Source: an uncultured Gammaproteobacteria bacterium
Lineage (GTDB): Bacteria; Cyanobacteriota; Vampirovibrionia; LMEP-6097; CAYGPN01
Direction: 5' to 3'
Assembly (NCBI GenBank): GCA_964352085.1
Contig: CAYGPN010000009.1
Location: forward strand, 44,539-108,538
DNA length: 64,000 nucleotides
The notes under the pieces are model-generated. The model saw only the letters and a list, made by a program, of their open reading frames with translations. It was not told the origin of the DNA and ran no database searches. Shown here in pieces: positions 29,629-61,267 of this stretch; positions within the stretch are counted from its first letter, which is position 1, and every line of letters begins with the position of its first letter. A program made the translations under genes and the position numbers.

Positions 29629-29766
29629 GTCATTACGAGCAATTTTATGTCATTGCGAGTAAAGCGAAGCAATCCCATGGATCACCACGTCGCCTTTGGC
29701 TCCTCGTGATGACATGCTAGCTGAACTCCTCGTGATGACATGCTAGCTGCGCTCCTCGCAATGACG
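29629..29766. repeat. Intergenic palindromic repeat element cluster, with modules gtcattgcgag / gcgaagcaatcc / atggatcaccacg / ctcgtgatgac.
   Basis: Directly visible; shares modules with the loci at 40280, 41526, 49419, 61240 and 63569. Confidence 0.8.
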
Positions 29767-41737: not shown

Positions 41738-43312
41738 TTAAAAAACTTCTAAAATAATCTGACTATCTATAAAACCACTATCAGTGTCTGTTGCAGTCAC
41801 AGTGATTTGAGCTCCTTCAGTTAAAAAGTCAGGAAATTCATCAAGGAAATCACTAAGAGGCGCAAATGTGGCAGTAATTTTTTTATATAATTTACGTTTG
41901 CCTATTTTAAAACTCTCTTTATTAAAGCTAATTAAATCCGGAGAGCTTGAGCTAAGACTTAGTCTCACTGTTTTCTTTTTAAATGGTTTAATTTTAGTAA
42001 ATTTAATTTTAGAAGTCACTTCATCAAAATCACCAACTAGAGTTGAGTTATTTACTGCTTTGCCGCTAGCTTTAAAACTTCTTTTAATTGCATCAGGGTC
42101 AGTACCTGGCATCCCACCATTAGTAGCACCACCCAAGTTAATAGTTGTTAGTTGTCCAGCATTAATAGTTATTTGCTGAGCGTTATTAAGAGCGTCTTCT
42201 AAGCTGACATCTAAAAGAGCCTCACCTGTTCCATTAAAAAATCCAGTAGTAAAAGAACTAGGATTTTTAGGTGGAGCTACAGGACCTACTGAAGATGCAC
42301 CTGTAAATTCGCTAAAGATTGGCTCAACTTTTAAAATATAGTTGCCAGGAGGCAAGCCTGGGATTATAAATTCAGCGTTTCCAGTTGTAAAGAGATCTAC
42401 AACGCTAGAAACAGCCAGAGCAGTGTTATCTACATTAAAAGCAATTACATTACCGCCAGTTAAAGCATTACTGTTAGAATCTCTAGCTTCGCCTCTAAGT
42501 GTTCCAAACTCTGTCATAAAATCAGTTTCGGCGTAAGCAGCTGGGGAAGAAACAGAAACAACATCATCTAGAAGTAGAGTGAAACCTGGATTTGCAAGAA
42601 TGGGAAACATGATTGGTATGTTTGATAAGTTCGAGGGTTGACCATTACGTCTTTTTAAAAACTCCTCTAAGAAAACTTGAGTGTGGTCTAAGCCAATTGC
42701 ATGTCCAAATTCGTGAAGAACAGTTGATTTAAAATTATTTGTATTTGTAACAGAAGTCTCACCAAAAAGATTAGATAAGGTAAAAAGAAAACCATTAAAA
42801 GCTGCTTGTGACTCGACTATTATTTCTGAACTTGGTGATATGAAAGTCGGTCCAGCAAAGCCAAGCACACTTGCCTTAGACCCTTGACCAAAGAAGCTTT
42901 CGAAGATCTCCCCATCATCATCAAAAACTATAGGTGTAAAACCTAAAGTACCATTAGGTGAAAGAATGGACTGGAAATTAGTTTCATTAATATCAGAGCT
43001 CAAAGTACCTTGATTTAGAAAATTGATTTTAGAAGTTTCCACATTATTCCAAGTAGCTAGAATATCGTTTGTAAGCATTTGCGGGTTGACAAGGTCGCCT
43101 AAAGGACCTTGATCGTTTCTATAAAGTACATTAACAACTGTGCCGCTGCTTGGGAAAGTGGGATAGAACTTTTGAGAGTCTGAACAATTTGAACCTCCAT
43201 TTGGGCAGGCTGCTAAAAGTCCAGCAGCTTTTGCTTCGCTCACAAAATTAGCAAAGGACAAAACAAATATAAGGAAAGCTAAAAATCTTAGCGATAAGGG
43301 CTTGAGGAGCAT
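41738..43312 (-). CDS. Secreted zinc metalloprotease of the metzincin type (HExxHxxGxxH plus Met-turn).
   Basis: Signal peptide; HEFGHAIGLDHTQ and a downstream IMFPIL Met-turn. Paralogous to 43322-44533. Confidence 0.6.
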   Translation of the reverse strand: MLLKPLSLRFLAFLIFVLSFANFVSEAKAAGLLAACPNGGSNCSDSQKFYPTFPSSGTVVNVLYRNDQGPLGDLVNPQMLTNDILATWNNVETSKINFLNQGTLSSDINETNFQSILSPNGTLGFTPIVFDDDGEIFESFFGQGSKASVLGFAGPTFISPSSEIIVESQAAFNGFLFTLSNLFGETSVTNTNNFKSTVLHEFGHAIGLDHTQVFLEEFLKRRNGQPSNLSNIPIMFPILANPGFTLLLDDVVSVSSPAAYAETDFMTEFGTLRGEARDSNSNALTGGNVIAFNVDNTALAVSSVVDLFTTGNAEFIIPGLPPGNYILKVEPIFSEFTGASSVGPVAPPKNPSSFTTGFFNGTGEALLDVSLEDALNNAQQITINAGQLTTINLGGATNGGMPGTDPDAIKRSFKASGKAVNNSTLVGDFDEVTSKIKFTKIKPFKKKTVRLSLSSSSPDLISFNKESFKIGKRKLYKKITATFAPLSDFLDEFPDFLTEGAQITVTATDTDSGFIDSQIILEVF

Positions 43313-43321
43313 AGTTATATT

Positions 43322-44533
43322 TTAGTTTAATGAGGAGAGGTCTAGGGTCCCAACTTTGGTTTTTTTACCAGCCGTTACTGTTATTAATCCACTTTCGCTG
43401 ATCTGATTAACAGCGCTGGTAACTAGAGTGCTAGCTGCTAGGAAAGGACTCCCTGAACCAGCAAAATAACCACCTTGAAGACTAGTATTTGGTGAGTAAA
43501 TCCCAACAGAAGAAGCTCCAGTGAAAGTTGAACCAATTGGTTGAAATCTTAATATAACTTGAGTTGATCCATTAACAGGGAAAGGTATGCTAAATGATCC
43601 AGTGCCTTTACCTTTAGTGTCAGATGGTACAGAGACGGTTTTGTTTGTTGGATCGTTAATATCATACGCAGTAACTACAAAGCCAGTAACTGCTTTGCCT
43701 GCATTTTGAATCTTTCCAACAATTTTTCCGTAGCCAGCTTTAAAAGCGGTTTTATTTTTATAGGCATCAGAAACAGCAGCTTTGTCATCTTCTTTAAGGC
43801 TAGGGCTTTGATTTAGAAAGCTAAATAGCGTAGGGAACATTACAGAGACATTTCCAGGGTTACTGCCTTCCTCACCAGTTTTAAAGTTTCCATCAAAGTT
43901 CTGGGTATGATCTATACCAAAAGAATGACCAACTTCATGAGTAATAGTTAGATCTGCTCCATTTTTGATAGTCTGCAGGCTAGAACCTGGGTTATTAGCT
44001 GTTGTAAAGAAATTACCATTAACAATTAATCTAGAGTTATTAATTTTTTTAGAGCTAGGTATAACAAAAAGAGGACCACCAAGACCAAGTACAGTATTTT
44101 CACCACCTTGACCAAAAATTGAGTTTATCGCGTCACCCGAATTATCTATGATTGCAACACTGCCACTTTTAGTTTTATTAAAAGTATTAAGAACATCATT
44201 TAAATTATCAAACTGAAGTGCTGAGCTTGAGAGCGTTAATTTAAATTTTGATCCAGGCACATTTGCCCACCTGCTAAATGCGTTTTGTACTAACTGTCTT
44301 GCACCAGCAATATCACCAATGCTATCAGCTCCACCTTGAAATATACCAAGCTTGTATGTGGTCTTAGGTTTTTTGCCTTTGTATTTAAAGAATAGGTTTT
44401 TTTTAGGTACGCAATTAGATGAACCATCTTTGCATCTGCCTATTAAACTTGCGCTATAAGCTGCATTATCGAGAAGCAGTGCAAAAATAACTGCTAATGA
44501 AAGTGTTAGTAAAGCTGATTTTCTAAGTTTCAT
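43322..44533 (-). CDS. Secreted zinc metalloprotease of the metzincin type; tandem paralog.
   Basis: Signal peptide; HEVGHSFGIDHTQ and VMFPTL. Shares the blocks VLGLGGPLF, NGNFFT and TFTGASSVG with its neighbour. Confidence 0.6.
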   Translation of the reverse strand: MKLRKSALLTLSLAVIFALLLDNAAYSASLIGRCKDGSSNCVPKKNLFFKYKGKKPKTTYKLGIFQGGADSIGDIAGARQLVQNAFSRWANVPGSKFKLTLSSSALQFDNLNDVLNTFNKTKSGSVAIIDNSGDAINSIFGQGGENTVLGLGGPLFVIPSSKKINNSRLIVNGNFFTTANNPGSSLQTIKNGADLTITHEVGHSFGIDHTQNFDGNFKTGEEGSNPGNVSVMFPTLFSFLNQSPSLKEDDKAAVSDAYKNKTAFKAGYGKIVGKIQNAGKAVTGFVVTAYDINDPTNKTVSVPSDTKGKGTGSFSIPFPVNGSTQVILRFQPIGSTFTGASSVGIYSPNTSLQGGYFAGSGSPFLAASTLVTSAVNQISESGLITVTAGKKTKVGTLDLSSLN

Positions 44534-48543: not shown

Positions 48544-49416
48544 ATGCACTTAGAATTACCAAAAGAAAAAGTATCTTCTAAGGTGCAGACTATTATTAAA
48601 GTGATTCTAGGATTTAATATCCTGGTTTTTCTAATGAAACTTTATATTGGAATAACAGCCCAATCACTTAGTATTCTTGGTGATGCTGCTCATTCCGGTG
48701 TTGATAGTTTAAATAATGTTTTGGGTTTAGCTATGGTCTATATAGCATCGCAGCCTCCTGATAGAGAACATCCTTATGGTCATGAGAAATTTGAGACACT
48801 GGGTGCTATAGCAATTGTTGCTTTTTTAGGTGTTGCATCTTTTGAGTTGATTGAAAAATCAATTATGAGATTTTTGCATCCAGCGGAGCTTCCTATTATT
48901 GATAAAACGACTATCATCTTTTTATTAATTACTTTAGTTATTAATATCTTTGTTTGGCTTTATGAGAAAAATGCTGGGCATAAATATAACTCAGAGTTTT
49001 TAAAGGCAGATGCTGAGCATACTTTTTCTGATATTTTAATTACACTTTCTATTCTTGCAAGTACTTACTTTATTCTTAAAGGCTATTATTTTTTAGATCC
49101 TCTTCTTGGGATATTAATTGCATTTATCATTTTAAGAAGCGCTTTTGAGATTGCTCAAAGAACAGTGCCAATTTTAGTGGATGAGTTTTGGATTGATCCT
49201 GAAGAGCTTGAAAAGATAGCGATGTCCGTTAACAAGGTGGCTGAATGTGAGGATATTAAATCTAGAAAAAGTCATTTAGATGGTTTTATAGAAATGACAG
49301 TGAAGTTCAGGACTGATTCTTTGGTTGAAGCTCATAAGCTTAGTCATGAAATAGAACATAAAATCCATGAGAAACACGGTGATTGTCTGGTTACTATTCA
49401 TATAGAGCCTGTTTAG
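48544..49416 (+). CDS. Cation diffusion facilitator family transporter.
   Basis: HSGVDSLNN…PPDREHPYGHEKFE signature, six TM helices and a C-terminal cytoplasmic domain. Confidence 0.7.
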   Translation: MHLELPKEKVSSKVQTIIKVILGFNILVFLMKLYIGITAQSLSILGDAAHSGVDSLNNVLGLAMVYIASQPPDREHPYGHEKFETLGAIAIVAFLGVASFELIEKSIMRFLHPAELPIIDKTTIIFLLITLVINIFVWLYEKNAGHKYNSEFLKADAEHTFSDILITLSILASTYFILKGYYFLDPLLGILIAFIILRSAFEIAQRTVPILVDEFWIDPEELEKIAMSVNKVAECEDIKSRKSHLDGFIEMTVKFRTDSLVEAHKLSHEIEHKIHEKHGDCLVTIHIEPV

Positions 49417-49418
49417 TT

Positions 49419-49540
49419 GTCATTGCGAGCACGGAATTGTCATTGCGAGCAGAGCGAAGCAATCCATGGATCACCACGTCGCCTTTGGCTTCTCGTGATG
49501 ACAATGCGTCATTGCGAGCAGAGCGAAGCAATCCAGCGAG
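49419..49540. repeat. Two copies of a palindromic repeat element variant (gtcattgcgagcagagcgaagcaatcc…).
   Basis: Directly visible; same modules as the other loci. The ORF-track ORF at 49383-49586 is a translation artefact of this repeat. Confidence 0.8.
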
Positions 49541-49664
49541 GGTATTTACCCATTTGTTAAGGAGAATGTTCAAAATTCTTTTATAATTGGTAATACGGGT
49601 ATTGCTAAAATTTTATATGAAAGCTTAGTCTAGAAAAGCCTTTTAGCTAAGCGGGGAAAGAAAA

Positions 49665-51161
49665 TTGATAATAAGAAATAACAGATTAGCACCATTTTTA
49701 CTAGCGCCAGTTTTAGCAGCGGGCTGCGTCTCGCCAGCTGAAAGAATAAAAGAGCGTGACAAAATAGCGGCTGTTGAAGGTCACAGTGCTTTAGATAAAT
49801 TTAGAGACTCTTATTATAAAGCAGCTGATGAATTCTATGACGAAGTTGTAAAAACTTACGTGCTTCTTTTGCAAGACAATACAGAGAAAGCAGAAAAATT
49901 TAGAGAAATTTATCGATTAGATGATTTAAATAAATTAGATATTCCTGAGACTAAAAAGATAAGAGAGTACTTTCAAAAGAAAGGAGATACAACTTTCATC
50001 ACTAAGTTGATTCTTTCAGCAAGAGCAACAGTGCCTCTAATAGATGCTGAATATAATGTTGCGATTAATAGTGATTCAAGTACTAGTAGACTAAGAGAAC
50101 TTAAAAGAGACTGGTACGATGCTTCAGCTAATTTTCTTCTTCTCTTGCAGAGCAAGTTTAAGCGTATAGCTTTTGATAATAAGGAAGTAGATGAAGCTGG
50201 GAGATTTGGTGGATATACTGCTAAAAAGAAAATTGATATTGGTGTTTTTGGTGATGTGATTGGCACTAAAGGTTACGCAAGAAATGAAATGCAAAAAGCC
50301 ATAAAGACTTTGGAAGATAATGGTTTTCCTAGAAATGAGAATAGAGCTTTAAAATCTATAGTGCATAGTCTTCAAGGTTTAACAGCAAGTAGTTATTTAA
50401 GTGAAAAAGGATTATTAAATGTCATTCAAGGACTTAAACAAGCTTTTCCTAATGTGTTTCTAAGTGCGGCTAAATTATTTGCGACTGGTCCTTCAAAAGC
50501 GAAAGTTAAAGGTCCTAGTCTTGCAGACTTGAAAAGAAAGTCAGGTGAAGAGGCAGCGAAAAGAGCTGAGGCAGCAGATGCAGCGAAAAGTGCAGAGCCA
50601 AAGAAGGGTGCTGCTAAGGCAAAGAAAGCTACAAGAGCAGAAGGCTTGCCAGTAGCGAGAGTTTCTAGTGGTAAAAAAGTTAATGAAGCTAATAGTGAGC
50701 CGAAGCCAGTGATTAAAAAAGAACCTGTGCCTCTAAAACCAGAACTTGTAGCAAAACCGAAGTCCGAAGCTAAAGAAGCAGTTGCAGTAATCAAAGCAGA
50801 AAAGCCAAAACCTTACTTGAGAGAAATAAAAGGCGTGAAGGAGTTTACTGCTGAGCAGATTGCTGGCTATAGGGAAACTAAACCAGGAGCTTATAACTAC
50901 TACACTAAGCTTGCTGAGAGGATTAACGAAGAAGCTACTCCTCTAAAAATAATATTTAAAGATAGCAAGCATGAGCATGATGTCATAATCTCAGAAACTG
51001 ACCTTAAAGCGCTTAAGCAAAAAGCAGATGGCTTTTATAATGGCCCTAAAAAACTTATGAATCTTCGTGTGTTAGTGGGCAATGACGGAAGTGTTTATTC
51101 AATTCCCACAGCTCAAATTCAGAAATTAATCTCAGGGGGAGAAAATAATGACAGTAACTAA
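49665..51161 (+). CDS. Putative lipoprotein with a histone-H1-like Ala/Lys-rich C-terminal region.
   Basis: Lipobox LAAGC; AKRAEAADAAKSAEPKKGAAKAKKATRAEG segment. No enzymatic motif. Confidence 0.45.
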   Translation: MIIRNNRLAPFLLAPVLAAGCVSPAERIKERDKIAAVEGHSALDKFRDSYYKAADEFYDEVVKTYVLLLQDNTEKAEKFREIYRLDDLNKLDIPETKKIREYFQKKGDTTFITKLILSARATVPLIDAEYNVAINSDSSTSRLRELKRDWYDASANFLLLLQSKFKRIAFDNKEVDEAGRFGGYTAKKKIDIGVFGDVIGTKGYARNEMQKAIKTLEDNGFPRNENRALKSIVHSLQGLTASSYLSEKGLLNVIQGLKQAFPNVFLSAAKLFATGPSKAKVKGPSLADLKRKSGEEAAKRAEAADAAKSAEPKKGAAKAKKATRAEGLPVARVSSGKKVNEANSEPKPVIKKEPVPLKPELVAKPKSEAKEAVAVIKAEKPKPYLREIKGVKEFTAEQIAGYRETKPGAYNYYTKLAERINEEATPLKIIFKDSKHEHDVIISETDLKALKQKADGFYNGPKKLMNLRVLVGNDGSVYSIPTAQIQKLISGGENNDSN

Positions 51162-54100
51162 TAATAGTGGACTTAATCTAGGCGTAGGTTTGAGCGGGCA
51201 AGCTGGTGGAAATCAGCATAGCCCTAAGGATAAATTATTAGCTTTTATTGATAGTAATCTTCCTGGTGGTGAGCTTGCTAAGGCAAGAACAGAGAAACTT
51301 ATAGAAGCTATTCAAGCTAGAGACCCAGATGTAAAAATTCCTATTGCTAAAAAACATATAGAAGCCTTTCTTAATAGCAATATTAAGACTTTATACCTTG
51401 ATGGAATAAAGGGGCAGGTTGCTGGCGCAGATGCATCTGCAATAAAAGAAGAAAATATGGAGCAAGTTGAAGCTGGCGTGAATAAAATCTGGGAGAATTT
51501 TATAAGCACTAATTTTCCTTTTGTAAATGAGCCTGCTTCAGCTGTGGTTGAACCAGTAGAGCAAACTGCAGTTAAGCCAGAGCCTCTAGCTCCAGCTCAA
51601 GAAGCTGCAACTCAAAGAGAAGCTAGTGAGCCTGCTAGGCAAGTAGCTGAGACTTTTAATATGGCTTTAGCAACTGACGAAGAAAAGATTAATCATTTTG
51701 CAAAGAAAATTCAAATATTTTTGATTAAAAAGCACTTTACTTTTATCCAAAAGGAAAGCACAAGTGATGAAGATTTTACAAATAACTTGCCTGAAATGGT
51801 TGCAGAAGCTGTAAAAGCTAATATGGGTAGAATTGTCCCTGTCATGAAAGCTCTAAAGATTCCGGAAGAAGATATTGCAGCACTTGAGGTTAGGTTAGAG
51901 CATTATTTTACAACTGCTTATACTGCACTTGCAAAGACTGATCCTGAAGCTAGAAGGCTATTACTAGAAAATAAGAATTTTATCTATGAAGTCTTAGGTA
52001 CTTTAGAGTTATTAGAAAGTTTCGAGACGAAGCTTCCTGAAATTCTTGCTTATGATCCTGCAAGTATTGAAGAAGTTTTAGCTGAAGCTGAAGTTTCTAA
52101 TCCTTCGTTTGGCACATATGAGCCTTTAGTTTTAATGGATGACACTAGCGTATTAAATGAGCCAGAAGATAGCGATCTTCAAGCTCAAGCAGATGCAACA
52201 GCAGCAGTTGCTGAATTAGTTTCGCTTGAAGAAAGTCCTGTTGCTGAGCCAGAGTTTCCAGCAGCGCCTGTTGCACCTGCCCAAAGTACTCATTCTTGGC
52301 TTGATAATATAACCTCTACAGCTGTATCTAGAAACTCTAGAAGTAATCCAGCTACTGATCTTGAAGAACCTCAAAGTTTACCTTTCCCTTTAGCTAGAAA
52401 TCCTGAGTTTGATCCTGAGCCGTCACAAGTAGCTCCACGTATAAGTGTAGACACCTTTTATGAACCTGTTCCTAATAATATTCATGAAGCTGCTCCAGGA
52501 AGTGGAAGGCATCGTATTCCAGTTCTAGATGTTTCTGTTGAAGACGAAAAGACCCCTAAATCTCCTAGTGACACTGATCTAGCTATTAAAGTTCCAAGTG
52601 ATGATGAAATTGCTGCTGTTGCTACTGAAGAAGAGATTCCTCTTGAAGATTATGAAGCAGGTTTTGATGATCCAGAAGATGGATCAGAATTGAATATTTT
52701 CAATGCAGAAGGCAACCCTTCAGAAAGTATAACTAGATCTTCTATAAAAATAGAAAATCCTCATGCAATTCCATTAGCACCACTTCCTAGCCCTCAAGCA
52801 CTACCACCACTGCCGCCAATGCCTAGTTTTGCAGTTCCAAGTGTTGTTGAAGAACCTACATCACCACCATTAGCTAGCCCTGCGGCAATTCCAGTGGCAC
52901 CTACTGCTCAAAGTCCTCTTATTGAAGAGCCGTCTCAGCCAGTTAATCCAATTGCTGCTATCCATGCGGCTAGACCTTCACTAGCTATTGATTTTGATGA
53001 TCCAGTTGAAGCTAATACCACTCCTGTTTTTAATGATGATGATGCGCCTATTAAGCCACTTAAAAAAAGACGAGCTGGTCTTTGGTTAACAGGACTTGGT
53101 TTAACGGGTGCTGGAATCGCAGCTACCGTTTTCGGTCTCAGCGAAAGAGCTAAAACTAAAAAAGAAGGACCTAAAAAACTATTAAATAACGGTTCTGATA
53201 CTGATCCTAAAAAAGGAATGCATGTATCTGTAAAAGATCCTAAGGCTAAAAATCCTGTGGGTCTAGAGACAACTGATTTTCCAGAGACAAAACCGAAAGT
53301 TGACGTGATTAAGCCTAAAACTGATAAACCTGATTTTAATCCAGATGAGTTTGAAGCGGAGCTTGAAAGCAAAAAGCTCACGAAAGAAGAGTTAAAGAAA
53401 TTAAACCCTATTTTAGGAAATTTAAAAAAGCTGATTCCAATTCTAGGTGGACTTTATAAGGCTCATCCAGAACATTTCTCAAACTTTGATATAGATGTAG
53501 CTAATAATGCTGCTAAAGCTTATGAAGCTCTAGAGAAATCCGTAGAGTCTGGCAAAAAAGCTGGGCAGCTTGATGAAGCTAACAAGCTCGAGCAAGCTAT
53601 GGGTGCTGTAATACTTAGTGTTAGACGAAAAGTTGTTGCTGCACAAGAGAAAGCTACACGTGATGCAAAAATTAAAGCTGCTCAAAAATCTAGAGAAGCT
53701 CAAATTGAAAAAGTTCAACGAGAAGCTGAAGCAGCGAAGTCTGCAGAAAAAACTGCTAAAGGTCCAGATAAAGCTAAAGCAAAAGCGAAGACTAGAGCAT
53801 CTTTAACTAGGCTTGACTTTATTAAGAAGATTAATGAAGCTTTGAAGAATGAAGAAGCTCAACGTGGGTCTGCTTCTTTTAAAGCTATTGAAAAGATATA
53901 TATCCCTGATGCAAGTGTTTTTGAGGGTTTGAGAGCTTTAGATGATGGTAAAGATCCAAGAATAACACTTATTACTACGACTGACTCTGCAAGAGAGAAA
54001 ATCTTAGTTGCTGGTGTTGTGACTATGAAGTTAGGCAAGGCTAATTTTAAAGATACTAAGACAGCAGCAGACAATCCTTATAATGATAAGGTTGGAGGCT

Positions 54101-54648
54101 TTCTTTCAATACCACAAAGTGAGATTAAAAAATTAGGTTATGTAGAGAAAAGTGAATTTAAAGGATTTTTGAAGAACCCAGAAAACTTTGTTCAGGCATT
54201 GTTTGGTGTTAGAGCTGAGAAAAGTGCTGATGCTGCAGTTCCTGAGCGCAGAACTGAAAAAGCAGGTCCTGGTGATATCAAACCTAGTAAAAAAGCAGAT
54301 TTAACTAGCTATGCTGCATCTAATCCAAGCATTGCTTTTAAAACTGTATTTGAAGAAGATCTTAGTCTTGAAGATATCTTTGATGGTGGCGCTAAAGTTA
54401 GGATGACTTTCACTTCTGATAAGCAAACACCAAAGGTTATAAGAGCTAAGAGTTATGATCTTGTGATTCAAAATGATCTAAGCTTTAGTAATTCTAGAGG
54501 TGAGTTCTTTATTGATGGCGAAGATGCTGTAGGTATTCAAGGTGATTATTTCTTTGCTTATGATCCTAAAACTAAGCAAGTTTATAAGCTGAAGATGATT
54601 AACGTGAAGAACACTGAGACACTTCAAGAGTCAGTAAGAGTTAAATAA
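51148..54648 (+). CDS. Giant (1166-aa) single-pass membrane protein. The N-terminal half is acidic and Pro-rich (PLPSPQALPPLPPMPS); the C-terminal half is Lys-rich coiled coil followed by a globular part.
   Basis: One central TM helix GLWLTGLGLTGAGIAATVFGL; the start overlaps the preceding gene by 14 bp. No known domain recognised. Confidence 0.5.
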   Translation: MTVTNNSGLNLGVGLSGQAGGNQHSPKDKLLAFIDSNLPGGELAKARTEKLIEAIQARDPDVKIPIAKKHIEAFLNSNIKTLYLDGIKGQVAGADASAIKEENMEQVEAGVNKIWENFISTNFPFVNEPASAVVEPVEQTAVKPEPLAPAQEAATQREASEPARQVAETFNMALATDEEKINHFAKKIQIFLIKKHFTFIQKESTSDEDFTNNLPEMVAEAVKANMGRIVPVMKALKIPEEDIAALEVRLEHYFTTAYTALAKTDPEARRLLLENKNFIYEVLGTLELLESFETKLPEILAYDPASIEEVLAEAEVSNPSFGTYEPLVLMDDTSVLNEPEDSDLQAQADATAAVAELVSLEESPVAEPEFPAAPVAPAQSTHSWLDNITSTAVSRNSRSNPATDLEEPQSLPFPLARNPEFDPEPSQVAPRISVDTFYEPVPNNIHEAAPGSGRHRIPVLDVSVEDEKTPKSPSDTDLAIKVPSDDEIAAVATEEEIPLEDYEAGFDDPEDGSELNIFNAEGNPSESITRSSIKIENPHAIPLAPLPSPQALPPLPPMPSFAVPSVVEEPTSPPLASPAAIPVAPTAQSPLIEEPSQPVNPIAAIHAARPSLAIDFDDPVEANTTPVFNDDDAPIKPLKKRRAGLWLTGLGLTGAGIAATVFGLSERAKTKKEGPKKLLNNGSDTDPKKGMHVSVKDPKAKNPVGLETTDFPETKPKVDVIKPKTDKPDFNPDEFEAELESKKLTKEELKKLNPILGNLKKLIPILGGLYKAHPEHFSNFDIDVANNAAKAYEALEKSVESGKKAGQLDEANKLEQAMGAVILSVRRKVVAAQEKATRDAKIKAAQKSREAQIEKVQREAEAAKSAEKTAKGPDKAKAKAKTRASLTRLDFIKKINEALKNEEAQRGSASFKAIEKIYIPDASVFEGLRALDDGKDPRITLITTTDSAREKILVAGVVTMKLGKANFKDTKTAADNPYNDKVGGFLSIPQSEIKKLGYVEKSEFKGFLKNPENFVQALFGVRAEKSADAAVPERRTEKAGPGDIKPSKKADLTSYAASNPSIAFKTVFEEDLSLEDIFDGGAKVRMTFTSDKQTPKVIRAKSYDLVIQNDLSFSNSRGEFFIDGEDAVGIQGDYFFAYDPKTKQVYKLKMINVKNTETLQESVRVK

Positions 54649-54750
54649 GAGCTTAAGATATAGCTGAAAACCCTCGGTTTTAAGGGGTTTTTGACTATTT
54701 TTATCAAATTATATATAGCCCTTTCTTTTTATTAAAGGAGAGAGGGATAA

Positions 54751-56502
54751 ATGATTATTGCAGCTATAAAACAGCCTATAAATTTAGATAAATTGCTTAA
54801 AACAAAAGCAGCAGATAAGGCCGAGAAAAAAGATAATTGCCCTTTAGGTGAAGATACTTTTTTATGTCAGGATATTGATCCAGCTAGACCTACTCCAGTT
54901 AAAAAACAAACTATTACTAATCCTGGATCTAAAAATCCTGGACTTTATTTTCTTTATAAAAAGAAAGCTGGTGGTGGCGTAGATATAGTTCCAGTTCAGA
55001 AAATTGCTGATGGCACGTCTACACAAACTTATTATAGAGAACTTGGTTCAAATAAACTTAAGTGTGAAGCTTTTGATTCAAAAATAAAGGTCTTTGATAT
55101 AGCAAATTTCCCTGGAGTTTTAGGCATTAGGTTTAAAGATGGAAGCTACAAAGAGTTTAAGCCAGGTGATATTAAAGCTAAGGGAGCAGATTATGAGCTG
55201 ACCTTAAGAGAATCAGGAAGTACTTTTAAGCATAAATTATCTGATATTAAAACCATAAAGAAAGTTTTTTATGGTTATAAAGTCTTTCAGGAAAGATATC
55301 TAAAGCTAGCTACTGTTAATGGTGATATGAAAGCTAAGAAGCTTTATTCATTAAGAATGAAAGATGGTTCTATAGTTATTGCTAAATCAGAAAAGGTTAA
55401 TAATAAGCTTGTTGGATTAAAAGATATTACAAATAATAATGTAATAGAGACAGGGAAAATTAATTTCTATAAAGATATCTGGTTCCCTAGTACAGGAGAG
55501 CAATTAAACGTTACTAGAAAAACAGATGGCAAAGTTTTTACAGGCTTAGTATCTAATAAAAGTGCTGCTAAAGTAGCAAGTATTTATGTAAATGACACTA
55601 AGGGTACTATCACTACTATTCCTTATGATCAAATTACTAAGATAGAGCGCGCTGATAAACCTAAAGATGAAGCTAAAAAAGAACTTCCTAAAGCTAAAGC
55701 TTTAGCTTTAGGGCTTCTTAAACTTAAACATGGTCAAGTGTATACAGGCTTATTTAGAGAATATAAAGGCACAGTTTATCTTGCTGCTCATGAGACTATG
55801 AAAGTTTGGACTACTTCTAAAGCGAATTCTAATGACCTAACGGCTTTGAAAGTTGATGAGGCTTATACAGTTGATGAAAAAACTTATAATGAGCTAAAAG
55901 CCAAGCTTGATAATCACATTAATATGGAGACTGCTAAAGAAAAAGCTGCAGAGAAAAAAGCTAACTTAGTGAGAATTGAAAAGATAAAACAAGCTGTAAG
56001 TTTAGAAAGAGCAAAAGGTTTTAGCCTTTATAAAAAAGGCGACAAGCTGGTAGCAGGAAGATATATCGTCAAAAGAATTACTAAAGATGGGGAATTAGCT
56101 AAAGCTTATGAAGTAGTTAGTAATGATGGTAAATTAACTAAGAAATACGAAGTTACTGCTAGTGGCTCTAAGAGAGCAAGTGGCAGATTCTCTATGATTA
56201 CTCGCACAGGTAATACTTTCCTTTATAAAGAAGTCGATCCTAAGACTGCATCTTTAGGATTAGCTAAAAGAAAAGAGCTAAAAGCATTTCTTGCTAAGGG
56301 CTTTAAAAGATATTCTAAAACTATGACTTTTGTAAATGGTCAGAAATACACAGTTAAACTTTTCTCTTCCAGGGGAGAGAATGATATTGTAACTATTGCT
56401 GAAGCTGGAGTTTTAAAATATCTAAATTCTAAAACTAAGAAGCTGCATGTTCTAAAGATGGAGCGCCCGTCTCAGTTGATCCTGATCAAAAAATCACCTT
56501 AA
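54751..56502 (+). CDS. Hypothetical 583-aa protein with internally repeated ~60-aa modules.
   Basis: Repeated GxKxxxGxYxVxxxTxDGxxxKxYEV-like modules; no signal peptide. Confidence 0.45.
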   Translation: MIIAAIKQPINLDKLLKTKAADKAEKKDNCPLGEDTFLCQDIDPARPTPVKKQTITNPGSKNPGLYFLYKKKAGGGVDIVPVQKIADGTSTQTYYRELGSNKLKCEAFDSKIKVFDIANFPGVLGIRFKDGSYKEFKPGDIKAKGADYELTLRESGSTFKHKLSDIKTIKKVFYGYKVFQERYLKLATVNGDMKAKKLYSLRMKDGSIVIAKSEKVNNKLVGLKDITNNNVIETGKINFYKDIWFPSTGEQLNVTRKTDGKVFTGLVSNKSAAKVASIYVNDTKGTITTIPYDQITKIERADKPKDEAKKELPKAKALALGLLKLKHGQVYTGLFREYKGTVYLAAHETMKVWTTSKANSNDLTALKVDEAYTVDEKTYNELKAKLDNHINMETAKEKAAEKKANLVRIEKIKQAVSLERAKGFSLYKKGDKLVAGRYIVKRITKDGELAKAYEVVSNDGKLTKKYEVTASGSKRASGRFSMITRTGNTFLYKEVDPKTASLGLAKRKELKAFLAKGFKRYSKTMTFVNGQKYTVKLFSSRGENDIVTIAEAGVLKYLNSKTKKLHVLKMERPSQLILIKKSP

Positions 56503-56526: not shown

Positions 56527-57075
56527 ATGCAAATCAAGGCAAAAATACTCCCTATAGCCAGTTCCAACATAGATACAGACCAAATAATTCCAGCTAGATA
56601 CCTTACTGGGATCTCTAAAGAAGGTTTGGGGCAGTATCTTTTAGAAGATGTGCCTAATAGCCCTATTAATGATGAGAAGTATAAAGGCGCTAAAGCGATA
56701 GTAACTTTAGAGAATTTTGGATGTGGTTCATCTAGAGAGCATGCTGTTTGGGCGATTATGGATCGTGGTTTTCAGGCTGTAATAGCTGTGAGTTTTGCTC
56801 GTATCTTTGAAGAGAATTGCTATAACAACGGTCTTGTGCCAGTGAAGTTAGAGGCGAAATATGTAGAAGAAATTTTAAAAGACGTTCAGGGAGAAGCTGA
56901 ACTAGAGATTGATGTAATTAATCAAACGCTTAAATACCAAGCTGGCAAAGATATTCGTGAGCTTAAATTTGATCTTGATCCACTTAAAAAAGAATTTATT
57001 TTAAAGGGTGGCTTTATGAAGTTTCTAGAAGCTAAAGTGCCTGATATTAAAAAATGGGAAGCTACTGCTAAGTAG
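56527..57075 (+). CDS. leuD: 3-isopropylmalate / homoaconitate-type dehydratase small subunit (archaeal-type short LeuD).
   Basis: 182 aa; GCGSSREHA and IIARSFARIF-like blocks of the aconitase swivel domain. Confidence 0.65.
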   Translation: MQIKAKILPIASSNIDTDQIIPARYLTGISKEGLGQYLLEDVPNSPINDEKYKGAKAIVTLENFGCGSSREHAVWAIMDRGFQAVIAVSFARIFEENCYNNGLVPVKLEAKYVEEILKDVQGEAELEIDVINQTLKYQAGKDIRELKFDLDPLKKEFILKGGFMKFLEAKVPDIKKWEATAK

Positions 57076-58662: not shown

Positions 58663-59877
58663 ATGAAATCAATAAAAAGAGAAATTAACCAAGATATTTT
58701 AAAATATCTTGGAAACGATCAAATACTGCTTTTAATTGGTGCAAGGCAGGTAGGTAAGACTACAATTCTGAGGCAGATCAAGACTCATCTAGAAGTTCAA
58801 AGCTTGCAGACTCATTTTATTAATTTAGAAGATCCAGAGTACTTAGCATTAATAAATGAATCACCTAAAAATCTTTTTAAAATATTGTCTATAAATCTAG
58901 AAAGTAAATCTTATATTTTTATAGACGAGATTCAGTATCTAGATAATCCTAGTAATTTTTTGAAATATTTTTATGATGAATACGGCGAGAAAATGAAGCT
59001 TATAGTTTCAGGTTCTTCTGCCTTTTATATAGACTCAAAATTTCAAGATTCGTTAGCTGGAAGAAAAAAGATCTTTTATGTGCGCAACTTGTCATTTAGT
59101 GAATTTCTATTATTTAAAGACCAAGAAGCATTATCTAAAAAAAGCTATATCTCTTTAAGTCTTAAAGAGAAAGACATAGTGCAGCGTGCTTTTGAGGAGT
59201 ATCTTGTCTATGGAGGCTATCCTAGAGTGGCTCTAAGCTCTGATCTTGAAGAGAAAAAAGAGATTTTAAGAGAGCTTGCTTACTCATATATTAAAAAAGA
59301 TATTTTTGAATCAAAAATTAAAGATGATAAGTCTTTTTATGCTTTGATGAGAATTCTGGCTGACCAAGTAGGCTCACTAGTTAATTCAAATGAACTGGCG
59401 TCTACCCTAGCTATTTCCAAGTCTAGTGTTGATAACTATCTAAATATCTTGCAGAAATCTTTTCATATATTTTTAGTGAAACCTTTTAGTAAAAACATAC
59501 GTAAAGAGCTTACTAAAATGCCTAAAGTCTATTTTGCTGATATGGGCTTGAGGAATTTTCTGGTGCGCGACTTTGAGCCATATGCTCTTAGAAGTGATAA
59601 AGGAGAGCTTTTAGAGAATATAGTTTTTAGGAAACTTTTAGATACTAATCATCATGAGGATATTATGTTTTGGAGAACTGCTGAAAAGCAAGAGCTAGAC
59701 TTTGTCTTGCAGGATAAAGCTGCAATTGAAGTTAAGGCTAATCCAGAAAAGTTTAATGTCAAAAAATACCAAAAATTTATAGAAGTTTATCCGGAAAAAG
59801 AGCTTAGTTTGGTTTCTTATGATTACAAAGGCTCTGCAGACTTTCCGGTTAAATATAAAGATGTTTTAGAGCTTTAA
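58663..59877 (+). CDS. AAA+ ATPase of the COG1373/DUF4143 type with a C-terminal PD-(D/E)xK-like segment (paralog 3).
   Basis: Walker A IGARQVGKTT, Walker B IFIDEIQ, and C-terminal QELDFVLQDKAAIEVK. Confidence 0.6.
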   Translation: MKSIKREINQDILKYLGNDQILLLIGARQVGKTTILRQIKTHLEVQSLQTHFINLEDPEYLALINESPKNLFKILSINLESKSYIFIDEIQYLDNPSNFLKYFYDEYGEKMKLIVSGSSAFYIDSKFQDSLAGRKKIFYVRNLSFSEFLLFKDQEALSKKSYISLSLKEKDIVQRAFEEYLVYGGYPRVALSSDLEEKKEILRELAYSYIKKDIFESKIKDDKSFYALMRILADQVGSLVNSNELASTLAISKSSVDNYLNILQKSFHIFLVKPFSKNIRKELTKMPKVYFADMGLRNFLVRDFEPYALRSDKGELLENIVFRKLLDTNHHEDIMFWRTAEKQELDFVLQDKAAIEVKANPEKFNVKKYQKFIEVYPEKELSLVSYDYKGSADFPVKYKDVLEL

Positions 59878-61214
59878 AGACTATTAGCGCTAGTAATCTT
59901 GCCTTTAATCGCTGAAGCAGCTACAGTAGCTGGGCTTGCTAAATGAGCTCTAGATCCTGTACCCATACGTCCAGGGAAATTGCGGTTTGTTGATGACACG
60001 CATCTGTTTTTAGGAGCAACTACTCCCATGCTCATTCCTAGGCATGGCCCGCAACTAGCATGCGTCCAAAGCGCGCCAGCATCTTGGAAAATATCATGCA
60101 AACCTTCTTTCTCTGCTTGCCTTTTAACAGCCTGAGAGCCTGGAGTTATGATAGTTGGCACAGCTACTTTCTTTCCTTTTAAAATATCAGCAGCAATTCT
60201 CAAATCAGAAATTCGAGCGTTTGTGCAGCTACCTATAAAAGCTTGGTCAATTTCTAAATCACCAACTTTATCACCAATTTTAAGTCCCATATAATCTAGA
60301 GATTTGTTTTCAGCATCTTTAGGAATAGTGCCTGTCGTAGAGACAGTCTCACCAGGATTTGTGCCCCAAGTAATTTGAGGCTCGAGTTTAGAAATATCTA
60401 GTTCAACAACCTCATCATAACTAGCATCAGCATCGGCTTTAAACTGTGACCATTTTTCTTTTAATTTTTCAAACTCAGCAGGGTCTTTTGGAAGCATCTC
60501 TTTACCTTTAAGGTATTCAAAAGTCACTTCGTCAGCTTCTATCATCCCGCTTGTAGCGCCAGCTTCAATAGCCATATTACAGATAGTCATGCGCTCTTCC
60601 ATATCAAGATCTTTAATAGCATCACCAGTGTATTCAAGCACGCAGCCAGTCCCACCTTTAAAAGTTACTTTATTAATGATCGCTAGAATGATATCTTTAG
60701 CGTAAACACCAGGCTTTCTTTTACCAGTAACATTGATTTTCATTACCTTAGGTTTTTTAAGAAGCAAGCACTGAGATAACATCGCACCAGCATTAGCAGT
60801 AGTTCCAATTCCTAAAGCAAAACATGCAAAGGCACCATTAGTGCAAGTATGACTATCACCGCAACAAAGAGTCATGCCTGGCTGCACGTAACCGCGTTCA
60901 GGAGCAACGATATGACAAATACCATTTTCACCAATATCAAAATGTCTAATGCCATGTTTTTTAGACCACTTTCTTAAAAGCTCTGCTTGAATAGCTGTAG
61001 CGGTATCTTTAGCTGGAGCCACGTGATCATTAATAGCTAGTATGCGATCTGGCTCGTAAATCTTACCGCCAAACTCTTCATCAATTTGAATAGCGCCTTG
61101 TGGAGTTGTGATTTCATGAGCCACGATGCGATCCATGAAAATTAAATAGTTGCCGCCCTCAAGCTCTTCAACTACATGTGCGTTCCATACTTTTTCAAAT
61201 AATGACTGTCCCAT
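59874..61214 (-). CDS. leuC: 3-isopropylmalate / homoaconitate-type dehydratase large subunit (archaeal-type LeuC, aconitase family).
   Basis: Aconitase-family Fe-S ligands GSCTNARISDL and ASCGPCLG; about 420-450 aa, the archaeal-type size. Confidence 0.7.
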   Translation of the reverse strand: MGQSLFEKVWNAHVVEELEGGNYLIFMDRIVAHEITTPQGAIQIDEEFGGKIYEPDRILAINDHVAPAKDTATAIQAELLRKWSKKHGIRHFDIGENGICHIVAPERGYVQPGMTLCCGDSHTCTNGAFACFALGIGTTANAGAMLSQCLLLKKPKVMKINVTGKRKPGVYAKDIILAIINKVTFKGGTGCVLEYTGDAIKDLDMEERMTICNMAIEAGATSGMIEADEVTFEYLKGKEMLPKDPAEFEKLKEKWSQFKADADASYDEVVELDISKLEPQITWGTNPGETVSTTGTIPKDAENKSLDYMGLKIGDKVGDLEIDQAFIGSCTNARISDLRIAADILKGKKVAVPTIITPGSQAVKRQAEKEGLHDIFQDAGALWTHASCGPCLGMSMGVVAPKNRCVSSTNRNFPGRMGTGSRAHLASPATVAASAIKGKITSANSL

Positions 61215-61239: not shown

Positions 61240-61267
61240 GGATTGCTTCGCTTTACTCGCAATGACA
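61240..61267. repeat. Partial copy of the palindromic repeat element (ggattgcttcgctttactcgcaatgaca).
   Basis: Matches the 3' half of the unit; lies between leuC and the chaperonin gene. Confidence 0.7.

Follow-up and report, generated by a model that had tools for sequence, protein, structure and literature searches.

Among described systems, the closest to the locus reported here are envelope-spanning proteins of the TolA/TonB, FimV/HubP, ZipA and LpoB kinds. TolA and TonB are held by one N-terminal membrane anchor, from which a long spacer (domain II in TolA, a periplasmic Glu-Pro/Lys-Pro stretch in TonB) leads to a small terminal domain. FimV and HubP are large bitopic proteins with a periplasmic LysM part at the N terminus and a very acidic, low-complexity C-terminal half that serves as a cytoplasmic docking platform. 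The lipoproteins LpoA and LpoB use a lipid anchor and an extended low-complexity linker to place a globular part across the periplasm. Melainabacteria, the non-photosynthetic sister lineage of cyanobacteria, have a cell biology that is almost unexplored, and lineages with sparse sampling commonly yield orphan genes. Here we describe three adjacent orphan genes (the trio) of an uncultured member of the Melainabacteria (Vampirovibrionia, Caenarcaniphilales-like), which recall parts of these architectures. The trio lies in a 64,000-nucleotide (nt) stretch of contig CAYGPN010000009.1 (assembly GCA_964352085.1), the whole of which we call the window; positions are those of the window unless a related locus is named.

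A lineage-restricted insertion in a variable slot

The trio is flanked by two conserved genes on the same strand: a cation-diffusion-facilitator (CDF) transporter gene on the left (48544-49416, +) and leuD, encoding the small subunit of 3-isopropylmalate dehydratase, on the right (56527-57075, +). The closest relatives of this leuD are 62-68% identical and come from metagenome-assembled genomes (MAGs) labelled Melainabacteria, Vampirovibrionia or Caenarcanales; conserved proteins of the host are only 55-68% identical to their nearest sampled relatives. Our comparison set comprised the leuD loci of 35 Melainabacteria genomes, searched by tblastn and by phmmer at E ≤ 10. The CDF gene lies directly 5' of leuD in 12 of these relatives, and the upstream order (two metalloprotease-like genes, a gene for a 169-amino-acid (aa) protein, a GAF histidine kinase gene, nuoN and the CDF gene) is kept in 11-12 of the 35 loci. 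Because the gap between the CDF gene and leuD in the 12 syntenic relatives spans only 34 bp to 2.85 kb and holds differing cargo, this is a variable accessory slot, in which the trio forms a lineage-restricted insertion of 7.1 kb. No relative of any trio protein was found in the 35 loci, and hence none of the orthologous three-gene modules for which an earlier reading of the window, made from the sequence only, had suggested looking.

What relatives carry in the slot is varied. We found an HTH-Fic protein (locus L033, 8879-9925), an FHA-domain protein together with an unknown protein (L035, 8150-9990), an HNH endonuclease (L021, 9299-9994) and a PIN+Arc toxin-antitoxin pair (L026, 9303-9997). 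In this clade, the CDF-leuD slot is thus a hotspot where selfish or conflict genes collect.

An unknown family of ~355-378 aa also recurs in the slot (L017, 7591-8724; L022, 8896-9978; L027, 116-1198; L029, 3853-5067), with a shorter copy in L019 (9457-9945) and a possible one in L028 (7348-8487). It has no Pfam match. Its members share the motifs NQGPGLG...ERR.ALAL and HEEA..(I/V)D.LV.L....P.Q(I/V)K(S/A), the second of which we tentatively compare to a PD-(D/E)xK-type nuclease signature.

Directly 5' of gene 1, the intergenic interval 49417-49535 (+) holds repeats like repetitive extragenic palindromes or miniature inverted-repeat transposable elements (REP/MITE-like): two perfect copies of GTCATTGCGAGCAGAGCGAAGCAATCC and a partial third, enclosing a hairpin. 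The repeat has the consensus GTCATTGCGAG[C/T]A[G/A]AGCGAAGCAATCC and occurs in the window at intergenic locations only, with further copies at 29649-29675 (+) and 61240-61266 (-); the loci retrieved from related Melainabacteria contained no copy. The trio region contains no tRNA gene and no Rfam match, we saw no convincing flanking direct or inverted repeats, and between the CDF gene and leuD there is no open reading frame (ORF) besides the trio that could encode an integrase or transposase.

Three genes that certainly code

The sequence-only reading had proposed three same-strand ORFs here as a novel surface or effector module, and its coordinates and lengths match the ORF list exactly. Gene 1 (49665-51161, +) has a TTG start and encodes a predicted lipoprotein of 498 aa (P0001); gene 2 (51148-54648, +) starts with ATG and encodes a probable bitopic membrane protein of 1166 aa (P0002); gene 3 (54751-56502, +) encodes a soluble, very basic protein of 583 aa (P0003). 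At the base composition of the window the probability of a stop is 0.069 per codon, or one stop per 14-15 codons, and log10 of the probability of meeting none is -15.5, -18.1 and -36.3 for the three ORFs. The longest stop-free stretch among 30 shuffled 64-kb windows was 188 aa; the trio ORFs are intact in DNA of 36% GC.

Codon use points the same way. GC content at third codon positions is 0.19-0.24 in the trio, against 0.244 ± 0.027 in the 28 other window genes that served as background. The synonymous-codon log-likelihood is -0.87 to -0.97 (background -0.966 ± 0.038), whereas values for the two alternative frames are -1.13 to -1.53, so that the bias is native, frame-specific and toward the favourable end of the background range. 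Ribosome-binding sites precede all three starts, that of gene 1, ahead of its TTG, being GGGGAAAG. ORF lengths beyond chance, native frame-specific codon use and ribosome-binding sites together make these real genes, and we regard them as certainly coding. The contigs that bear the trio all come from one run series (ERR3534977-95), and their sequences are identical.

No known family

We found no family match for the trio. Searches with the whole proteins against Pfam, NCBIfam, PHROGs and PADLOC returned only scattered sub-threshold matches that did not agree with one another, such as bPH_5 (E 0.023) and LRR_Zer-1 (E 0.011), which we treat as noise; PHROGs gave nothing beyond such noise, and PADLOC at E ≤ 1 gave zero matches for all three proteins. 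Ten domain-sized fragments searched against Pfam at E ≤ 10 yielded no recurring family, and PDB sequence searches were empty or noise. Neither a catalytic domain of any kind nor, in the Pfam searches with whole proteins and fragments, a eukaryote-like domain was matched. The statement that none of the three has a recognisable domain thus stood in every library searched. Clear homology to a housekeeping complex, set beforehand as the outcome that would speak against a novel module, was looked for extensively and not found.

The wider protein space was equally silent. In a word-indexed search of 5.8 billion protein clusters, P0001, P0002 and P0003 each matched only themselves, each forming a singleton 90% cluster. 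P0002 was also searched exhaustively with HMMER against 1.84 billion representative proteins, and only the query came back; P0001 and P0003 were covered by the word-indexed searches. Scans of JGI metagenomes with P0001 and P0003, scans of IMG/VR with all three proteins, and tblastn against GenBank phages and against plasmids found no relatives. By elimination, the trio belongs to no known family, which reflects the lack of matches for a lineage with sparse sampling and does not demonstrate a new mechanism.

A predicted lipoprotein with probable coupling to gene 2

P0001 begins with MIIRNNRLAPFLLAPVLAAG followed by Cys21, a signal peptide and lipobox (aa 1-21) recognized by pattern inspection. 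Arg4 and Arg7 precede a 12-residue h-region and the lipobox L-A-A-G-C, which agrees with the generic pattern of bacterial lipoproteins (basic n-region, h-region, lipobox Cys at 15-35). P0001 is accordingly a predicted lipoprotein, as first proposed; this is membership of a class and implies no family. After the anchor come a domain (aa 22-284) and then a linker rich in Ala, Lys and Pro (aa 285-392, nt 50517-50840; 21% K, 19% A, 9% P); the last ~105 aa (393-498) form a C-terminal region. The sequence-only reading had described a histone-H1-like AK-rich tail: the AK-rich segment is there, but it is an internal linker with ~105 aa after it, and the likeness to histone H1 is one of composition only. 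In an exported lipoprotein, such an Ala/Lys/Pro stretch is more plausibly an extended spacer.

Upstream, a perfect TATAAT hexamer (49582-49587, +) lies ~77 nt 5' of the gene 1 start and is a possible -10 element; it has no good -35 partner, and a consensus promoter scan did not list a full promoter there.

Genes 1 and 2 overlap by 14 bp (51148-51161, +), from the gene 2 ATG at 51148 to the end of the gene 1 stop codon at 51161. A Shine-Dalgarno sequence, GGGGGAG, is placed 7 nt 5' of this ATG, within the end of gene 1. Both the overlap and the coupling that had been read from it hold up, in that the arrangement fits translational coupling of the two genes.

A large protein with a central hydrophobic segment

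P0002 has no N-terminal signal peptide. It contains a single hydrophobic, Gly-rich segment, GLWLTGLGLTGAGIAATVFGL (aa 644-664; nt 53077-53139, +), flanked by KKRR and RAKTKK, which bears out the one central hydrophobic segment noticed at the outset. Because its Kyte-Doolittle maximum over 19 residues is only 1.43, we regard it as a probable transmembrane helix and not as a certain one.

The two sides of this segment differ in charge. Residues 1-640 carry a net charge of -60 with an isoelectric point (pI) of 4.4, whereas the 500 residues C-terminal of the segment carry +16 (pI 9.3). The acidic side comprises two helical regions in a low-confidence model (aa 26-122 and 161-311) and then an acidic Pro-rich segment (aa 313-640, net -44) without predicted regular structure. 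These ~330 residues contain 16% Pro and 18% Asp+Glu and include the Pro-rich motif PLPSPQALPPLPPMPS (aa 545-560; nt 52780-52827, +), much as the acidic and proline-rich N-terminal half had been characterized. On the basic side, a Lys-rich stretch (aa 666-731) leads into a basic helical region (aa 732-1019), which includes an AK-rich segment (aa 826-880), and then into a C terminus (~aa 1096-1149) that a low-confidence model predicts to be beta-rich.

The AlphaFold2 single-sequence model of P0002, at a mean predicted local distance difference test (pLDDT) score of 38, is unusable as a structure and was read for rough secondary structure only. Its outline shows helices across aa 732-1019, among them a long one at 808-869, nothing regular across aa 312-731, and strands at 1096-1149. 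Of the coiled-coil, Lys-rich C-terminal half proposed for P0002, the basic character is borne out, while its helical nature comes from this low-confidence model only.

A basic soluble protein behind a hairpin

P0003 has no signal peptide or hydrophobic segment and is strongly basic (net +51, pI 9.8). Its AlphaFold2 single-sequence model (mean pLDDT 34) is likewise unusable as a structure; the low-confidence outline consists chiefly of beta-hairpins and one long helix at ~aa 376-415. The internal repetition ascribed to P0003 was not borne out: its best internal match covers 28 aa, with an E value of 0.014 by BLAST and a P value of 0.11 by hhalign.

Between genes 2 and 3 there is a terminator-like hairpin (54665-54705, +) that runs from AAAACCC to GGGGUUUUU and is followed by a U-rich tract. 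At -13.6 kcal/mol and a z score of -1.9 it is modest, and it was absent from the listing of the consensus scan. Gene 3 also has its own ribosome-binding site, AAAGGAGAG. Because of the hairpin in the spacer, gene 3 may be a separate transcription unit.

We also compared the three proteins with one another. By eye, P0001 and P0002 have an Ala/Lys-rich stretch in common (EAADAAKSAE and EAEAAKSAE), and the motif [ST]IPxx[QE]IxK[LI] recurs in all three. Smith-Waterman scores for domain pairs gave p values of 0.04-0.09 against shuffles, and P0001 241-498 against P0002 746-1010 gave 0.012-0.026 when the shuffles preserved local composition; the best hhalign P value within the trio was 0.014. The best three-way window was low-complexity K/E/A/P sequence, which 31 of 150 shuffles equalled or exceeded. 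With tests this marginal, we rejected a shared domain or paralogy of the trio as unproven; from the sequences, paralogy is a possible relationship.

We are highly confident in the descriptive account as a whole, namely real, native-looking orphan genes in a variable slot, the first of lipoprotein type and arranged for translational coupling to the second, which has a probable membrane anchor.

What the trio might do

Our best overall explanation, to which we give a rough probability of 0.4, is an orphan insertion in the variable slot combined with a weakly held mechanism in which the products form an envelope scaffold or tether. The mechanism taken by itself is doubtful, and we put it forward tentatively. 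Genes 1 and 2 would be translated as a coupled pair and would act together in the cell envelope. P0001 would be lipid-anchored in the periplasm, with its Ala/Lys/Pro linker keeping the small C-terminal region off the membrane. P0002 would be held in the inner membrane by one helix, most likely N-in/C-out, since translocation of 640 N-terminal residues that lack a signal peptide is unlikely. Its basic helical and beta-rich half (aa 666-1166) would then be periplasmic and near P0001, and its acidic half, made of the two helical regions and the ~330-aa Pro-rich spacer, would be cytoplasmic. P0003, with no export signal and a charge complementary to that of the acidic arm (net +51, pI 9.8 versus net -60, pI 4.4), would be the likeliest cytoplasmic partner of that arm. 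Together the three proteins would form a transmembrane scaffold or tether, not an enzyme, connecting the periplasm or outer envelope with a partner in the cytoplasm. A structural scaffold is the simplest reading, as no catalytic domain was matched anywhere in the trio.

Several points weigh against this proposal. It draws on composition and on rules of topology, and neither homology nor structure backs it; both AlphaFold models (mean pLDDT 34 and 38) are unusable. The hydrophobic segment of P0002 is marginal, at a Kyte-Doolittle value of 1.43, and as basic residues flank it on both sides, the orientation follows only from the missing signal peptide. Similarity between P0001 and P0002 is marginal and composition-driven (local-shuffle p ~0.01-0.03; hhalign P 0.014). 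Gene 3 may be uncoupled from genes 1 and 2 by the hairpin and by having a ribosome-binding site of its own, and it need not share their function. The selfish or conflict-type cargo that relatives carry in the slot favours another kind of function.

A bolder version of the scaffold idea strikes us as improbable. On that version, the trio would be a transmembrane apparatus not seen before, complete in itself, confined to one deep-branching lineage of Melainabacteria and made from protein families with no other occurrence in current sequence space. Its parts would be a lipoprotein, a bitopic scaffold whose acidic poly-Pro arm measures 330 aa, and a basic partner rich in beta structure, and its function would be lineage-specific, either in the envelope or in interaction with other cells or a host.

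The alternative that survives best, itself unlikely, is that the trio is conflict-related or mobile cargo, either the remnant of a prophage or island or a membrane-based exclusion or defence module in the hotspot, whose envelope proteins would change the cell surface or protect it from phages or competitors. The company the slot keeps in relatives (the HTH-Fic protein, the PIN+Arc pair, the HNH endonuclease, the FHA protein and unknown families) speaks for this, as do the REP/MITE-like repeats adjoining the insertion. Accessory genes with fast turnover are also typically orphans in singleton clusters, as these are. The proteins themselves do not look the part, however: none has a nuclease, NTPase or other effector-like domain, no PADLOC or PHROGs match and no relative among the phage, viral and plasmid sequences searched turned up for any of them, and in codon use they are fully native. 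Nor does the locus carry an integrase, a transposase, a tRNA gene or flanking direct repeats.

Distinctly improbable is a known envelope-spanning system (a TolA/TonB-, FimV/HubP-, ZipA- or LpoB-like tether) that has diverged past detection. The combination of a membrane anchor, a long Pro-rich or Ala/Lys-rich spacer and a small terminal domain does recall such systems, and sampled relatives are distant enough, at 55-68% identity for conserved proteins, to leave room for divergence. Yet no TolA_C, TonB_C, LysM or ZipA_C match appeared, even with fragment queries at E ≤ 10, and the anchor is central instead of N-terminal. A housekeeping system would moreover be kept in relatives, whereas these have no counterpart at the locus, and the exhaustive search with P0002 brought up no intermediate sequences.

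We consider it very improbable that the trio is, in line with the sequence-only reading, a surface or secreted effector module that binds SH3/WW-type domains of eukaryotes through its PPLPP/PxxP motifs. The motif PLPSPQALPPLPPMPS exists in P0002, and some Vampirovibrionia are predators of eukaryotic algae. Short PxxP strings are nevertheless expected by chance at 16-22% Pro, no eukaryote-like domain was found, and the neighbourhood has no secretion-system genes. Because the Pro-rich region precedes the sole hydrophobic segment of a protein without a signal peptide and is thus most likely cytoplasmic, it could not meet SH3/WW domains of a eukaryote unless exported by some non-classical route. 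Bacterial envelope proteins commonly contain spacers that are acidic and rich in Pro. We accordingly regard the eukaryote-like interpretation of the segment as unsupported; a surface role may still apply to genes 1 and 2, while nothing supports an effector.

That the ORFs are non-functional, decaying or never expressed is barely credible, for while no homologues exist from which to compute purifying selection and the available copies are all identical, frames of 498, 1166 and 583 aa stand intact in 36% GC DNA with native frame-specific codon bias and good ribosome-binding sites.

If functional, the cluster would add three new protein families from Melainabacteria, one of them 1166 aa long. The slot between the CDF gene and leuD is clearly defined and can be used for studying accessory-gene turnover in this group. 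Given their length, their coherent envelope features and their well-defined variable slot, the three genes are a reasonable, not urgent, target.

Neighbouring genes and related loci

Other neighbours are housekeeping genes (aroA, leuC, groEL and the gene for ribosomal protein L1), and no secretion-system genes lie near the trio. The window leuC (59874-61214, -) is split from leuD (56527-57075, +), with aroA and an ATPase gene of the AAA_14/DUF4143 type between them. In another group of Melainabacteria loci (compare L003, L008, L009, L013 and L016), a 445-446-aa ORF, matched in 10 loci by tblastn with the window leuC, lies directly 5' of leuD. Because a leuC-matching ORF directly precedes leuD in that group, the leuCD operon appears to have been split up where the CDF gene stands 5' of leuD, as in the clade of the window. 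The AAA_14/DUF4143 ATPase gene (58663-59877, +), between aroA and leuC, has a similar gene in only 4 of the 35 related loci, at various positions, which makes it a possible further case of a mobile or accessory gene.

Further upstream, two tandem genes (41738-43312, -, and 43322-44533, -) have weak matches to matrixin/reprolysin-type zinc metalloproteases (E 2e-6 to 4e-4), mostly below Pfam thresholds; the 11 syntenic relatives keep this pair, at only ~37% identity. Several MAGs of study SRP150892 are titled 'uncultured Gammaproteobacteria' (among L006, L018, L023, L028, L033 and L035). Their leuD is 63-68% identical to that of the window, and four of them (L018, L023, L028 and L033), as well as L035, have the nuoN-CDF-leuD synteny of Melainabacteria; these titles are probably wrong.

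Comparison with known systems

P0002 is like TolA and TonB in having one membrane anchor. Its Ala/Lys/Glu-rich helical stretch (aa 826-880) and the P0001 linker (aa 285-392) recall domain II of TolA, its Pro-rich stretch recalls the TonB spacer, and there are small terminal domains; a pairing with a lipoprotein is conceivable. Unlike the N-terminal anchors of TolA and TonB, however, that of P0002 is central (aa 644-664), and its Pro-rich spacer is acidic and presumed to lie on the cytoplasmic side, whereas that of TonB is periplasmic. No TolA_C or TonB_C domain was found in the trio, either in Pfam and NCBIfam with whole proteins or in Pfam with C-terminal fragments at E ≤ 10. Its neighbours are the CDF-transporter gene, leuD, aroA and nuoN, with neither tolQR nor exbBD adjacent, and the cluster is not conserved in relatives.

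With FimV and HubP, P0002 shares the plan of a large bitopic protein, one half of which is very acidic and of low complexity and would suit a cytoplasmic docking platform. The order is reversed, however, with the acidic part N-terminal in P0002, and neither LysM nor the FimV C-terminal motif was found in the trio in Pfam or NCBIfam. P0001 resembles LpoA and LpoB in its predicted lipid anchor and extended low-complexity linker, but a region of ~260 aa directly follows its anchor and the linker comes later, and no sequence similarity to any Lpo family was found in Pfam or NCBIfam.

In their genomic setting, the three genes resemble the orphan genes of variable hotspots: they have no homologues, the content of their slot varies among related genomes, and small dispersed repeats lie adjacent. 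They differ from such genes in being unusually long (up to 1166 aa) and fully native in codon use, and in having the coherent features of envelope proteins where short hypothetical ORFs would be usual.

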